63,570 nucleotides of DNA from positions 1 through 63,570 of the forward strand of contig JAAYBZ010000165.1 of assembly GCA_012744445.1 (NCBI GenBank). The letters run 5' to 3'. Below are positions 30,611-34,847 of this stretch, piece by piece. Position 1 is the stretch's first letter. The number at the start of each line of letters is the position of its first letter. Below the pieces are notes generated by a model that saw only the letters and a program-made list of their open reading frames with translations, did not search any database and had not been told where the DNA came from. This DNA is from Myxococcales bacterium. Its GTDB lineage: Bacteria; Myxococcota_A; Polyangia; Polyangiales; Houyiibacteriaceae. The position numbers and the translations under genes were made by a program.

Positions 30611-31369
30611 ATGCGATGCCGCGAACGAGTCGGCCCCGTGATTCGCGTCGAAGACGTACACCTCCGGTTCAAAGCCCCGGTGCTCAAGGGCGTCAGCCTT
30701 CACATCCCCGAGGGCTGCATCTACGTGCTCATCGGTCCGGGCGCGGCGGGCAAGAGCGTGCTGCTCAAGTGCATCGCGGGACTCCTCCGTCCCCAGCGCG
30801 GGCGCATCTGGGTCGCGGGCGAAGAGATCACCGCCCTCGACGACCTCCAGATGATGCAGCTCCGCAAGAAGATCGGCATGCTCTTCCAGAACTACGCCCT
30901 CTTCGATCTCTCCGTGGGAGAGAACATCGCGTTCCCGCTCCGTCGCCTCTTCGACCTCCCGCAGAACGAGATCGAGGAGCGCGTGGCCGAGCGCCTGGAG
31001 CGCGTGGCCCTCCCCGGCATCCAGAACCGGATCCCCGCGAGCCTCTCCGGCGGCCAGAAGAAGCGCGTCGGCGTGGCGCGCGCCACCATCGCCAAGGCGC
31101 CCGTCGTCCTCTACGACGAGCCCACGGCGGGCCTCGATCCGGTCACCAGCCAGAAGATCTACAACCTCATCCGCGACGAGCAGCGCGCGCAGAAGAGCAC
31201 CGTCGTCGTCATCTCGAGCGACGTCGCCGGCGCGCTCACGATCGCCGATCGCGTGGGCATGCTGCACCGCGGCGAGCTCATCTTCGACGGCACGGTCGAC
31301 GAGGCCCGCACGTCCAAGCACCCCGCCGTCGACCAATTCGTCCACGGCAAGACGGAGGGACCGCTGTGA
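30611..31369 (+). CDS. MlaF-like ABC ATPase 1 (canonical LSGGQ, H-loop His replaced by Ser)
   Basis: Walker A GPGAAGKS, Q-loop FQNYALF, signature LSGGQKKR, Walker B VVLYDEP, and H-loop position VVVISSD. ATG 30611 is preferred over GTG 30569. Confidence 0.9.
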   Translation: MRCRERVGPVIRVEDVHLRFKAPVLKGVSLHIPEGCIYVLIGPGAAGKSVLLKCIAGLLRPQRGRIWVAGEEITALDDLQMMQLRKKIGMLFQNYALFDLSVGENIAFPLRRLFDLPQNEIEERVAERLERVALPGIQNRIPASLSGGQKKRVGVARATIAKAPVVLYDEPTAGLDPVTSQKIYNLIRDEQRAQKSTVVVISSDVAGALTIADRVGMLHRGELIFDGTVDEARTSKHPAVDQFVHGKTEGPL

Positions 31370-32145
31370 GCACCGCCCTCGCCCTCCCCGCCAAGATCGG
31401 CGCGAGCCTCCTCCAGATCGCCGAGCAGGCCGGCGGCATCGCCATCATGGCGGGTCAGATCCTGCGGCGCCTCCTGCCGCCCAAGATCGACCGCATCGAG
31501 TTCTTCCGGAACATGTACCGGATGGGCGTGCAGTCCACGGCCATCGTCGCGGCGACGGCCTTCTTCACGGGCTGCATCATGGTCATCCAGGCCGCGCCCA
31601 TCGTGCAGAACTTCAACGCCAACCACTACGTGGGTTGGAGCGCGATGTTCACCACGTTCCGCGAGATCGGCCCGCTGCTCATCGCGCTGATGTTCAACGG
31701 CCGCGTCGGCGCCAACAACACCGCCGAGCTCGGCACCATGGTCGTCACCGAGCAGATCGACGCGCTCCGCGCGCTCGCGATCGACCCGGTCACCTACCTC
31801 GTCGTGCCGCGCGTGCTCTCGATGATCATCACGATGACGGCGCTGGTCATCCTCGGCGATGCGCTCGCCATCTTGGGCGCGATCGTCATGGCCAACGTGA
31901 TGCTCGACATGCACCCCGTCGGCTTCGTGAACCACGCCCTCGAGATGCTCGTGCTCTGGGACTTCCTCGTGGGCGTCATCAAGGCGTTCTTCTACGGCTC
32001 GATGATCTCGCTCTCGTCCTGTTATTTCGGCCTCGCCACCCGCGGCGGCGCGCCGGGCGTCGGCCGCGCGGTGAACGCCTCGGTCGTCGCGTCGGCGAGC
32101 GGCGTCTTCATCGCCGACTACATCTCCTCCTTCGTCCTCGGCTGA
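31366..32145 (+). CDS. MlaE/YrbE-like ABC permease 1
   Basis: The GTG at 31366 overlaps the ATPase stop (GTGA). The MlaE family signature is REIGPLLIALMFNGRVGANNTAELGTMVVTEQIDALRALAIDP. There are 5-6 TM helices. Confidence 0.88.
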   Translation: MSTALALPAKIGASLLQIAEQAGGIAIMAGQILRRLLPPKIDRIEFFRNMYRMGVQSTAIVAATAFFTGCIMVIQAAPIVQNFNANHYVGWSAMFTTFREIGPLLIALMFNGRVGANNTAELGTMVVTEQIDALRALAIDPVTYLVVPRVLSMIITMTALVILGDALAILGAIVMANVMLDMHPVGFVNHALEMLVLWDFLVGVIKAFFYGSMISLSSCYFGLATRGGAPGVGRAVNASVVASASGVFIADYISSFVLG

Positions 32146-32157
32146 GCGAGCGCAACG

Positions 32158-32982
32158 ATGACCACGGCCACCGAAACGAACGCCATGCCCACCAAGACGG
32201 ACGCCGAAGCCGAGGTCCGGAAGCCGGGTGCGTTCCAATTCTACGCGGAGGAGCTCAGCGACCTGCTCCGCGTCACCATCCGCACCTTCTATTACATCGT
32301 CCGAGGTAAGCGAGAGAAGGGCGACGTCATCCGCCAGTGCTTCGAGATCGGCAACAAGTCGATGTTCTTCATGGCGGTAACCATGGCGTTCATCGGCGCG
32401 ATCGTCCTCTTCCAGATGTGCATGCAGGCCAAGCGCATCATCCCCGACCTCACGATGATCGGCGGCATGTACGCCAAGCTCCTCATCCGCGAGCTCGCGC
32501 CCTCGGTCGGCGCGATGCCCTTCGCCACGCGCGTCGGCGCCGGCATCGCGGCCGAGATCGGCTCCATGGTCGTCACCGAGCAGACCGACGCCCTCCGCAT
32601 GAGCGGCGCCGATCCGGTCGACTACCTCGTCGTCCCCCGCTTCGTGGCCTCGGTGATCATGGGGACCATCGTCCTCGTCCTCGGCGCGGGCATCGCCTAC
32701 GGCGCGGGCTTCGTCGTCGGCGTCACCACCTTCGACATCAACCCCAACACCTTCATCAATTTCACGAGCGTCAAGGGCGGTGACGTGGCCCTCGGGCTCA
32801 TCAAATGCGTCTGCTACGGCGGCATCATCGCCCTCGTCAGCAGCCAGCGCGGTCTCCGCACCTTCGGCGGCTCCGAGGGCGTCGGCATCGCGACCACGCA
32901 GGCCGTCGTCGGCTCGCTCTTCGCCGTCATCGTCGCCAACTTCATCCTCTCCAGCGTCGGCCACTTCGTCTTCCCCCCCTGA
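32158..32982 (+). CDS. MlaE/YrbE-like ABC permease 2 (diverged paralogue)
   Basis: RELAPSVGAMPFATRVGAGIAAEIGSMVVTEQTDALRMSGADP has the same signature as permease 1 but low overall identity. There is a 12-nt gap after permease 1. Confidence 0.88.
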   Translation: MTTATETNAMPTKTDAEAEVRKPGAFQFYAEELSDLLRVTIRTFYYIVRGKREKGDVIRQCFEIGNKSMFFMAVTMAFIGAIVLFQMCMQAKRIIPDLTMIGGMYAKLLIRELAPSVGAMPFATRVGAGIAAEIGSMVVTEQTDALRMSGADPVDYLVVPRFVASVIMGTIVLVLGAGIAYGAGFVVGVTTFDINPNTFINFTSVKGGDVALGLIKCVCYGGIIALVSSQRGLRTFGGSEGVGIATTQAVVGSLFAVIVANFILSSVGHFVFPP

Positions 32983-32988
32983 GCTGCG

Positions 32989-33735
32989 ATGTCCATCGTC
33001 TTCCGAAACATCCACAAGAGCTTCGGGCCGAAGACGGTCCTCAAGGGCGTCGATCTCGAGGTCCGCGAGGGCGAGTGCTTCTTCATCATCGGCGCCTCGG
33101 GCGTGGGCAAGAGCGTGCTCATCAAACACCTCGTCGGCCTCCTCCGCCCCGACTCCGGCGACATCTACCTCGGGGATCGCGAGATCAGCCGCCTCTCCGA
33201 GCGCGAGTTCTATGAAGTGCGGAAGAAGTGCGCGATGGTCTTCCAGAACTCGACGCTCTTCGACTCGATGACCTGCGTGGAGAACGTCGCGCTCCCCCTC
33301 CGCAAGCACAAGAAGCTCTCGCTGGAGAAGGCCCTCGTCGAGGCCGAGTTCCGCCTCGACCAGGTGCACATGCGCGAGTTCAAGGACGCCTACCCGGCCG
33401 AGCTCGGCGACGGCATGCGCAAGCGCGTCGCCATCGCCCGCGCGCTCACGCTCGACCCGCAGTACGTCCTCTTCGACGAGCCCACCACCTCGCTCGATCC
33501 CGTCAGCGCCCGCCGCGTCGACGTGATGATCCGAGAGCTCTGCGACGAGATCAAGGTCACGAGCATCGTGGTCAGCCACGATCTCGTCTCCATCTTCACC
33601 ATCGCGGACCGTATCGCGATGCTCTACAAGGGCAACGTTCGGCTCCTCGGCACCCCCGAGGATTTCAAGCGTTCCGAAGACCCGGTCGTCCGCCAGTTCA
33701 TCCGTGGCGAGGCCGAAGGACCGATGGAGGTCTGA
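32989..33735 (+). CDS. MlaF-like ABC ATPase 2 (degenerate signature LGDGM)
   Basis: Walker [10 protein letters not shown]-loop FQNSTLF, signature position ELGDGMRKR (33403-33417), Walker B VLFDEP, and H-loop VVSHD. Confidence 0.9.
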
Positions 33736-33854
33736 GCCCAAGCGCTCTCACGCCATCGCCCCGCACGAACCGGGAATCGCCTTACGCTTTTTCGCAATCC
33801 CCGGTTCCACTCCGACTGAACACGTAGGATTCTTCTCCACCGAGGCCCCTTTCC

Positions 33855-34847
33855 ATGAAGTCCCTTTCACTCGAAGCTCGCGTCGGTCTGCTCATCTTGG
33901 TGGCTGTCGGCCTCCTGGGCGCCTTCGTCTTCACGCTGAACCCCAGCCTCATCGAAGAGGGCTATCTGGTGTACGTCGACTTCAACAACCCGGGCGGCCT
34001 CAAGGGCGGCGCCCCGGTGAACATCGGCGGCATCCGGATCGGGCGCATCGAAGGCGTCGACTACCTCGGCGGCAAGGAAGATCCGATCACCAAGCGCCGT
34101 CCGATGATCCGCGTGCGGGCTCGCATCAACCGCGAGTACCTCGACACCATCTACGAAGACGCGCGCTTCTACGTCACCTCCACCAGCATCGTCGGCGAGT
34201 CGATCATGGCCATCGATCCGGGCGATCCGCGCAAGGAGCCGCTCGGCGAGAACGCCTACGTCATCGGCATCGATCCGCCGCGCATGGACCTCGCCTTCGC
34301 CAAGGCCTACGAGCTCCTCGAGACCATCTCCAGCCTCCTCGTCGACAACCGTGAGGACCTCGAGGGCCTCGTGAAGAACGCCTCGAGCCTGCTCGGCAGC
34401 CTCAACGAGATCATGACCAAGCACGGCGATCGCGTCGATCGCATCATCGAGAACGTCGAGTCGATCTCCGACGAGGCCAACGAGCTCGTCGCCGGCGCCA
34501 ACAAGATCGTCAACGGCCCGCGCGTCGCCCGCATCCTCCGCAACGTCGACGAGTCGCTCGCGGTCGTGAACCGCGACATCGACCCGATCATGAAGGACGT
34601 CCGCTCCATCACGCACAAGGTCGACGACGCCCTCGACATGATCGGCCCCAAGCAGCAGGAGCAGGTGAAGTCGATCCTCGAGGACGGCGCGGCCATCGCG
34701 GCCGACGCCAAGGCGATGGTCTCCCACATCCGGCAGGGTCGTGGGACCGTCGGCGCCATCCTCATGGACGAGGCCATGTACGACGACATCCAGGAGATGC
34801 TCCGCGACCTCAAGCACAACCCGTGGAAGCTCTTCTGGCGCGAGTGA
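33855..34847 (+). CDS. MlaD/MCE-domain protein with long helical C-terminal extension
   Basis: N-terminal TM helix, then an MCE domain (YLVYVDFNNPGGLKGGAPVNIGGIRIGRIEGV), then about 190 aa of predicted helical repeats. Confidence 0.88.
   Translation: MKSLSLEARVGLLILVAVGLLGAFVFTLNPSLIEEGYLVYVDFNNPGGLKGGAPVNIGGIRIGRIEGVDYLGGKEDPITKRRPMIRVRARINREYLDTIYEDARFYVTSTSIVGESIMAIDPGDPRKEPLGENAYVIGIDPPRMDLAFAKAYELLETISSLLVDNREDLEGLVKNASSLLGSLNEIMTKHGDRVDRIIENVESISDEANELVAGANKIVNGPRVARILRNVDESLAVVNRDIDPIMKDVRSITHKVDDALDMIGPKQQEQVKSILEDGAAIAADAKAMVSHIRQGRGTVGAILMDEAMYDDIQEMLRDLKHNPWKLFWRE

Follow-up and report, generated by a model that had tools for sequence, protein, structure and literature searches.

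A five-gene Mla/MCE-type locus of Myxococcota with two dissimilar ATPases and a predicted degenerate ATP site

Transporters of the Mla/MCE type carry lipids through the bacterial envelope. They have so far been described with symmetric ATPase dimers (MlaF₂ or the MceG homodimer), while the coupling of ATP to lipid movement, and the direction of this movement, are still debated. In this study a five-gene Mla/MCE-type ATP-binding cassette (ABC) transporter locus was analysed in contig JAAYBZ010000165.1 of a Myxococcales bacterium; the whole stretch of DNA, 63.5 kb with ~70% G+C, is from now on referred to as the window, and the sequences most closely related to it carry the annotation Sandaracinaceae or Polyangia, phylum Myxococcota. 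The locus encodes two ATPases, two permeases and one MCE-domain protein, named F1, F2, E1, E2 and the MCE protein. The favoured reading, to which we give a probability of roughly 70%, is that they would form a single F1·F2·E1·E2 complex with an MCE ring, harbouring one catalytic and one degenerate ATP site; both heterodimerisation and loss of catalysis we infer from the sequences.

Closest described systems and layout of the locus

For each of the five proteins the best matches in PDB are structures of MlaFEDB from E. coli, A. baumannii and P. aeruginosa (6xbd, 7d06 and 7ch8). MlaFEDB has an MlaE-fold permease, an MlaF-type ATPase and a transmembrane-anchored MCE protein in common with the present locus, and F2 shares its Met-type signature (xxxGM). 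It is however built from one F and one E gene, forming F₂E₂ homodimers with two consensus ATP sites, whereas two F and two E paralogues are found here. It also needs MlaB (a STAS protein) together with the C-terminal handshake of MlaF (PMC7367683) and works with MlaC and MlaA, while the ATPases of the window have no C-terminal extension and the MCE protein, unlike that of MlaFEDB, carries a long helical tail.

The actinobacterial Mce1-4 systems (M. smegmatis Mce1; 8fed, 8fee and 8fef) resemble the locus in their heterodimeric permease pair, YrbEA/YrbEB, and in the long helical needle of their MCE subunits, but they contain six different MCE genes and one MceG, acting as a homodimer, in place of one MCE gene and two ATPases. 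The six MCE genes and single MceG of an Mce system are thus absent, which leaves the pair of permeases and the helical needle as the only features in common. For both E1 and E2 the scores with proteobacterial MlaE exceed those with YrbE1A and YrbE1B, and the permease duplication therefore looks independent of Mce.

In Veillonella parvula an E-F-D core without MlaA, MlaB and MlaC has been described (MlaEFD), with an extension of the MCE protein proposed to bridge the envelope (PMC10665443), but with single E and F genes and with an MlaD ending in a different C-terminal domain. Such a three-component MlaEFD with a long MlaD has been proposed as ancestral, and the same phylogenomic survey of Mla mentions only "several duplications" in Gracilicutes, with neither the word "heterodimer" nor a description of ATPase asymmetry (PMC10665443).

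Outside this transporter fold, heterodimeric ABC exporters (TM287/288, BmrCD, TAP1/2, CFTR and Rv1273c/72c) combine two different ATPase domains with asymmetric D-loops (PMC7756269, PMC5216877), and in these, as predicted here, the loss of a catalytic residue in one domain and a non-consensus signature in the other meet in the same composite site. They differ in being type IV transporters with transmembrane domains of an unrelated fold fused to the ATPase domains, and in their usual hallmark, loss of the Walker-B Glu, which is kept in the window but lost in two relatives (L104 and L105, see below). In this comparison the design appears as a cross of MlaFED (the folds), Mce (the permease heterodimer and the needle) and heterodimeric exporters (the degenerate site). 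A full-text literature search did not reveal any MlaF or MceG described as heterodimeric or degenerate, and the original prediction, made from the sequence of the window, that the arrangement is undescribed for Mla/MCE systems agrees with this.

The five genes are located as follows.

30611-31369, + strand: F1, MlaF-like ABC ATPase, putative degenerate-site type, 252 amino acids (Pfam ABC_tran, 6.7e-32)
31366-32145, + strand: E1, MlaE-family permease, 259 amino acids, GTG start (Pfam MlaE, 4.8e-66)
32158-32982, + strand: E2, second MlaE-family permease, 274 amino acids (Pfam MlaE, 1.8e-55)
32989-33735, + strand: F2, MlaF-like ABC ATPase, 248 amino acids (Pfam ABC_tran, 2.9e-30)
33855-34847, + strand: MCE subunit, 330 amino acids (Pfam MlaD, 2.5e-13)

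All five open reading frames were found, co-directional, exactly where the original prediction had placed them, and the GTGA by which the start of E1 was said to overlap the stop of F1 was verified in the sequence. The gaps between the genes are 12 nucleotides (E1-E2), 6 nucleotides (E2-F2) and 119 nucleotides (F2-MCE), and a promoter/terminator scan gave no terminator inside the operon, the two terminator-like matches being below chance expectation. An alternative GTG start of F1 at 30641, 10 codons downstream of the ATG, corresponds to the start of most orthologues and may be the true one.

The Pfam MlaE (PF02405) matches of E1 and E2 span the full 212-position profile, and the permeases match MlaE structures in PDB at 9.7e-26 (E1, 7ch8_G) and 1.2e-21 (E2, 6xbd_G). 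MlaF is the best NCBIfam model of both ATPases, at 168.5 bits (F1) and 187.3 bits (F2), with the equivalog cutoff of 441 well above both; their top PDB matches are MlaF and MceG, with phmmer values of 1.4e-46 for F1 and 2.9e-52 for F2 against A. baumannii MlaF (7d06_B). The components of an Mla/MCE-type ABC transporter, i.e. an MlaE permease, an ATPase of the MlaF/MceG type and a membrane-anchored MCE-domain (PF02470) protein, are all present. The identity is 39% between F1 and F2 and 36% between E1 and E2, which bears out the strong divergence claimed for both pairs.

Motif changes in the two ATPases

The positions of the ATPase motifs were fixed by phmmer alignment to the solved structures of A. 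baumannii MlaF (7d06_B) and M. smegmatis MceG (8fed_G). In these alignments, which have no gaps through the motifs, ISSDV of F1 falls on VSHDV and LGDGM of F2 falls on LSGGM. The following motifs are of importance for the predicted ATP sites.

30734-30757, + strand: F1 Walker A, GPGAAGKS, with G44 and A45 (positions 3 and 4) departing from GxSGxGKS
31043-31057, + strand: F1 signature, LSGGQ, canonical
31211-31225, + strand: F1 H-loop, ISSDV, with Ser203 (AGC, 31217-31219) in place of the catalytic switch His
33403-33417, + strand: F2 signature, LGDGM (G140 and D141), CTCGGCGACGGCATG, where canonical MlaF has LSGGM
33484-33501, + strand: F2 D-loop, TTSLDP (T167 and S168), where canonical MlaF has TAGLDP

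Both ATPases retain the Walker A Lys, the Q-loop Gln and the Walker-B Asp-Glu, and in F2 Walker A, Walker B and the H-loop are intact. The three motif claims of the original prediction, namely a Ser at the H-loop position of the first ATPase, a degenerate LGDGM signature in the second and an intact Walker A/B and H-loop in the latter, were all confirmed by the alignments.

To describe the conservation of these changes three aligned sets were compared motif by motif, consisting of 137 F1-type sequences, 128 F2-type sequences and 52 canonical MlaF sequences, the latter being MlaF of other phyla adjoining an MlaE gene. The canonical set and four myxobacterial loci come from the matches listed in a contig scan with an F1 alignment, which went by generic ABC patterns; its 80 loci are a haphazard sample and not a census. 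Canonical MlaF is invariant, with S and G of Walker A (GxSGxGK[ST]), LSGGM, TAGLDP and the H-loop His all at 100%, and none of the four changes of F1 and F2 was found among these 52 sequences. The F1 clade departs from this pattern only in Walker A, GP[G/A]A[S/A]GKS, where position 3 is G or A and position 4 is A in 97%, and in the H-loop, where Ser is present in 100%; its signature is of the canonical LSGGQ type and its D-loop is TAGLDP in 100%. The F2 clade in turn departs only in the signature LGDGM (G 99%, D 97%) and in the D-loop TTSLDP (T 100%, S 93%), its Walker A being canonical and its H-loop having the His. Among orthologues of at least 67% identity, the H-loop Ser is found in 120/120 F1 sequences, while in F2 the Asp at signature position 3 occurs in 117/120 and the H-loop His in 120/120, and a search of representatives of 50%-identity clusters revealed further Ser-type clusters down to 44-50% identity. 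The asymmetry is therefore, as had been proposed, conserved in orthologues, with Ser in 100% of the F1-type and G-D in 97-99% of the F2-type sequences.

In an ABC ATPase dimer the D-loop of one subunit reaches into the composite ATP site of the other. Walker A, Walker B, the Q-loop and the H-loop of one ATPase, together with the signature of its partner, make up the rest of such a site (PMC7756269). Given this geometry and a head-to-tail dimer, all four deviations would fall in the site built on the P-loop of F1. The original prediction had placed the H-loop and signature defects in the same composite site, which follows from the geometry (PMC7756269), and the Walker A change of F1 and the D-loop change of F2 now join them. 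Two non-identical ATPases, loss of a catalytic residue (the H-loop His) and a non-consensus signature in the partner, the marks of a degenerate site, are all found, and in heterodimeric ABC exporters with such a site the D-loops are known to be asymmetric (PMC5216877).

The two sites of an F1·F2 heterodimer would accordingly be unequal. Site 2, consisting of Walker A, Walker B and the H-loop His of F2 with LSGGQ and TAGLDP of F1, would be consensus throughout and is predicted to hydrolyse ATP, while site 1, with GPGAAGKS and Ser203 of F1 facing LGDGM and TTSLDP of F2, would hold every deviation and be degenerate, probably binding nucleotide with little or no turnover and keeping both ATPases aligned. 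As judged from the motifs, either homodimer would have a defect in both sites, whereas the heterodimer would have one intact site. The proposed ATPase heterodimer would lie beneath an E1·E2 heterodimer of MlaE-fold permeases, and the single MCE protein would cap the complex as a ring, presumably homohexameric (MCE6) and bearing a helical needle; no second MCE gene is found with the four ABC genes.

Gene order and phylogeny in relatives

The order F1-E1-E2-F2 is uninterrupted in the window and in L003, L010, L082, L085, L087, L090 and L105, and L082/L083, with 81% identity, show the same downstream synteny as the window. In L003 (Kofleriaceae) an MCE gene is situated nearby on the opposite strand, in L087 the four ABC genes are together and the MCE gene is not adjacent, and in L089 (Kofleriaceae) a single leucine-rich-repeat-domain gene lies between E2 and F2, with an MCE gene nearby. 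In L081 (Sandaracinus amylolyticus, CP011125) F1 is set apart from E1-E2-F2-D by two genes. These two genes (7774-8957) encode paralogous small membrane proteins of 204 and 190 amino acids, 33% identical to each other and without a Pfam match. In L081-L083, L003, L010, L085 (a Myxococcota metagenome-assembled genome), L087, L089 and L090 every F1 combines SSD with a canonical signature, and F2 combines [LIV][GS]DG[MLIS] with SHD.

Two further relatives have lost other residues of F1. In L104 its Walker B reads YDDP (Glu to Asp) and the H-loop His is retained, while in L105 (a Bradymonadia metagenome-assembled genome, 6001-8937) Walker B reads CDDP (Glu to Asp) and the H-loop contains Gln; in both the Walker A of F1 is deviant as well, G[PA]GGAGKS, and F2 retains [FL]GDG[ML] and TTGxDP. 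The Walker-B losses imply that one and the same site has been deprived of different catalytic residues in separate lineages, and on these sequences the changes on the F2 side appear shared and old while the catalytic residue lost from F1 varies by lineage. Such variation is what would be expected if the site based on F1 need not hydrolyse ATP. In L104 the genes are located at 3072-3839 and 95-838 (- strand), the F2-type gene being upstream on the opposite strand.

Trees built by neighbour-joining (200 bootstraps) gave each of the four families as a clade (F1 197/200; F2, E1 and E2 200/200 each). The clades include Bradymonadia sequences, which implies that the four families, co-occurring across Polyangia and Bradymonadia, predate the split of these two groups. 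Branching follows a broadly similar order in the subtrees of F1 and F2. F1 and F2 were sisters in only 20/200 bootstraps and E1 and E2 in 116/200, and the order F-E followed by E-F-D, the latter common in other phyla, is not the one expected from tandem duplication or inversion. Since sisterhood of F1 and F2 is unsupported, the description of the locus as "mirror-duplicated" was dropped as an established one and applies to the gene order only.

A number of observations weigh against a single transporter with a degenerate site. In the window neither the Walker-B Glu (D169-E170) nor the Q-loop Gln of F1 has been lost, so that a degenerate site would here lack its classical hallmark, and the H-loop Ser may leave residual activity; in ABCC1 a change of the His to Gln or Asn in the consensus site kept transport (PMC7756269). 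Close relatives (at least 67% identity) make up most of the sequences behind the motif statistics, against about a dozen truly divergent loci. Orphan F1-type genes with the H-loop Ser and no permease gene nearby are found in L001 (3638-4369), L002 (7001-7732) and L004 (7001-7744), F1-E1-E2 occurs without F2 in L009, and in L084, a 4.2-kb contig with 32% G+C, a Ser-type F1 and an E1-type permease (2278-3791) are followed only by a convergent gene. L084 is either a sign that the family reaches outside the high-GC Myxococcota or a stand-alone half. When examined as possible partners, the open reading frames downstream of F1 in L001 and L002 had no Pfam matches and look like wrong-frame translations, and F1 is truly unlinked in these loci. 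The F1 of L004, which is labelled Alphaproteobacteria, reads VNSDM.

The linkage of the gene set is consequently looser than the original prediction implied, with F1 unlinked in L001 and L002 and set apart in L081, but the part of the claim that stands is that the four ABC genes are mostly linked where the contig suffices. A single MCE gene is found in or near the cluster in 7/10 relatives with both ATPases, and on these loci the proposed test, whether the two halves occur as independent operons with separate MCE partners, came out in favour of the original prediction.

Two independent homodimeric transporters, F1₂E1₂ and F2₂E2₂-MCE6, sharing one operon would account for the E-F-D order of the second half, for the F1-E1 pair alone on the short contig L084 and for the unlinked F1 of L001 and L002, and the duplicated mlaDEF sets of F. 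novicida have indeed been interpreted as two pathways (PMC3312209). Such an arrangement would however leave F1₂ without any H-loop His and F2₂ with LGDGM in both sites, does not explain deviations that are complementary and conserved, and has only one MCE gene at its disposal. Furthermore, the splits seen in relatives ignore the supposed halves, as in F1-E1-E2 of L009 and in S. amylolyticus, where F1 is apart from E1-E2-F2-D, and the subtrees of F1 and F2 branch in broadly similar order. For these reasons we consider two homodimers decidedly unlikely.

F1 is the most loosely linked member of the set (L001, L002 and L081) and evolves faster than F2, e.g. 89% against 92% identity (P0002 and P0275), which could also suggest that an F2 homodimer is the motor and F1 a swappable, non-stoichiometric regulator or pseudo-ATPase, functionally nearer to MlaB. 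The F2 homodimer would again have LGDGM in both sites, though, and E1, with its start overlapping the stop of F1, would be left without an ATPase partner, while the canonical LSGGQ and D-loop of F1 would have no purpose unless, with F2, they completed an active site. This possibility appears very improbable.

A third reading accepts the F1·F2 heterodimer but takes both ATP sites to be catalytically competent, with the substitutions tuning kinetics or regulation. The Walker A Lys, Walker-B Asp-Glu and Q-loop Gln retained by F1 are in line with it, as is the tolerance of some ABC proteins to replacement of the H-loop His (PMC7756269). It is nevertheless judged unlikely, with four deviations gathered in one site, among them an Asp in the signature facing the gamma-phosphate, with the classical degenerate-site change of the catalytic Glu to Asp in F1 of relatives, and with every degenerate site of human ABC proteins being marked by signature changes (PMC7756269). 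The heterodimer with one catalytic and one degenerate site is thus preferred.

MCE protein, flanking genes and implications

An AlphaFold2 model of the MCE protein (45 sequences) has a mean predicted local distance difference test score (pLDDT) of 65, with values below 50 for residues 190-282, and consists of a transmembrane helix (6-28), an MCE beta domain (36-139) and helices at 144-218, 223-255, 266-293 and 298-321. The long helical tail proposed earlier is thus predicted over residues 144-321, at low confidence as a monomer. When searched with Foldseek, the best full-length match of the model was Mce1B of the M. smegmatis Mce1 complex (8fed_B), with MlaD and other Mce1 subunits also matched, and the orthologues carry precomputed Pfam PF28544 (Helical_needle). 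The ~180 helical residues of the tail could reach ~270 Å fully extended or ~110 Å as a hairpin. The monomer model does not discriminate between the two, and a tail that spans the periplasm, as the original prediction suggested, is only a possibility. Conservation of the protein is highest in its C-terminal 36 amino acids (34737-34844; GRGTVGAILMDEAMYDDIQEMLRDLKHNPWKLFWRE), where many positions do not vary among 45 orthologues, which suggests a specific docking or membrane-contact role.

No STAS/MlaB, MlaC or MlaA domain was detected with Pfam in any codon-bias-supported open reading frame of the window, a result that holds for these 63.5 kb and does not cover the rest of the genome; within that scope the predicted lack of MlaB and MlaC genes was borne out. 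F1 and F2 end at about residue 252 of the 269 in MlaF, without the ~25-amino-acid C-terminal handshake that in E. coli MlaF works with MlaB (PMC7367683). The features of the canonical Mla pathway (MlaA-F), i.e. MlaB, MlaC and MlaA with the handshake and a single-gene F₂E₂ homodimeric core, are accordingly not those of this locus.

Two neighbouring genes on the same strand were considered in connection with the operon.

29786-30541, + strand: SctJ/YscJ-family lipoprotein gene, lipobox LFGC, C-terminal transmembrane helix (Pfam YscJ_FliF, 1.5e-23)
35020-35775, + strand: Glu/Arg-rich coiled-coil protein with one transmembrane helix and a Ser-rich tail (no Pfam family)

The SctJ-like gene is located 69 nucleotides upstream of F1 and scores 136.7 bits with TIGR02544, below the cutoff of 161.95. 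An orthologue, 45% identical, overlaps the start of F1 in L085 (5216-6004) and L086 (1398-2186), but the gene was not found in the other related loci. As a general partner of the transporter it was rejected, as only the near-identical contig L091 of 13 metagenome relatives adjoins MCE genes, and the association is limited to the lineage of the window and L085/L086. The protein may be a lineage-variable periplasmic ring accessory, its membership in the system being uncertain.

The coiled-coil gene, with the MCE gene on one side and pyrF on the other, recurs in L081 (13723-14586), L082 (11337-12095) and L090 (10926-11696), with its position retained down to 46% F1 identity, and a promoter-like site (34904-34933) is present just upstream of it. 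Its synteny with the MCE gene makes it a candidate, still unproven, for a link to the transporter.

Elsewhere in the window two convergent PilZ-domain genes (45001-45363, + strand, and 45360-45761, - strand) overlap at their 3' ends, and an FHA-GGDEF diguanylate cyclase is encoded at 15762-17045. The glycerol-3-phosphate dehydrogenase gene gpsA (23910-24920) and a gene for a PlsB-type glycerol-3-phosphate acyltransferase (48901-51483) are also present, neither of them linked to the operon.

The search of representatives was topped by fused proteins of ~555 amino acids with two MlaF-like domains (P0121-P0125; L005 5948-7735), in which the second signature is VSAGE, ISSGQ or ISNGE. An HlyD-like gene is located near the gene of L005. 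As candidates for a fusion of the two ATPases these proteins were rejected, there being no MlaE or MCE neighbour in L005.

A more far-reaching proposal, which we regard as rather doubtful, is that the degenerate site would act as a built-in latch and not be a mere loss of function, with the invariant signature Asp of F2 and the invariant H-loop Ser of F1 opposite one another at the interface. Aided by the altered D-loop and P-loop, these residues would hold F1·F2 together with unhydrolysed nucleotide bound, or even without a gamma-phosphate, in replacement of MlaB and the C-terminal handshake of E. coli MlaF. The consensus site would then use a single ATP in each cycle to drive an intrinsically asymmetric lipid pathway through E1·E2 into the homohexameric MCE needle, with the SctJ-like ring lipoprotein recruited round the base in some lineages.

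For annotation the motifs give a direct gain, in that hundreds of myxobacterial proteins which now bear only the generic label of ABC ATP-binding protein can be assigned to two classes of subunit, the F1 type with the diagnostic motifs GP[GA]A.GKS and SSD and the F2 type with [LIVF]GDG[ML] and TT[SG]LDP. If the heterodimer with one degenerate site is true, it would be the first case of asymmetry between ATPase domains in this transporter fold and would mean that a single catalytic site suffices. It would also offer a ready-made system for assigning a role to each ATP site and each permease half, and would suggest how systems without MlaB hold their ATPases together.

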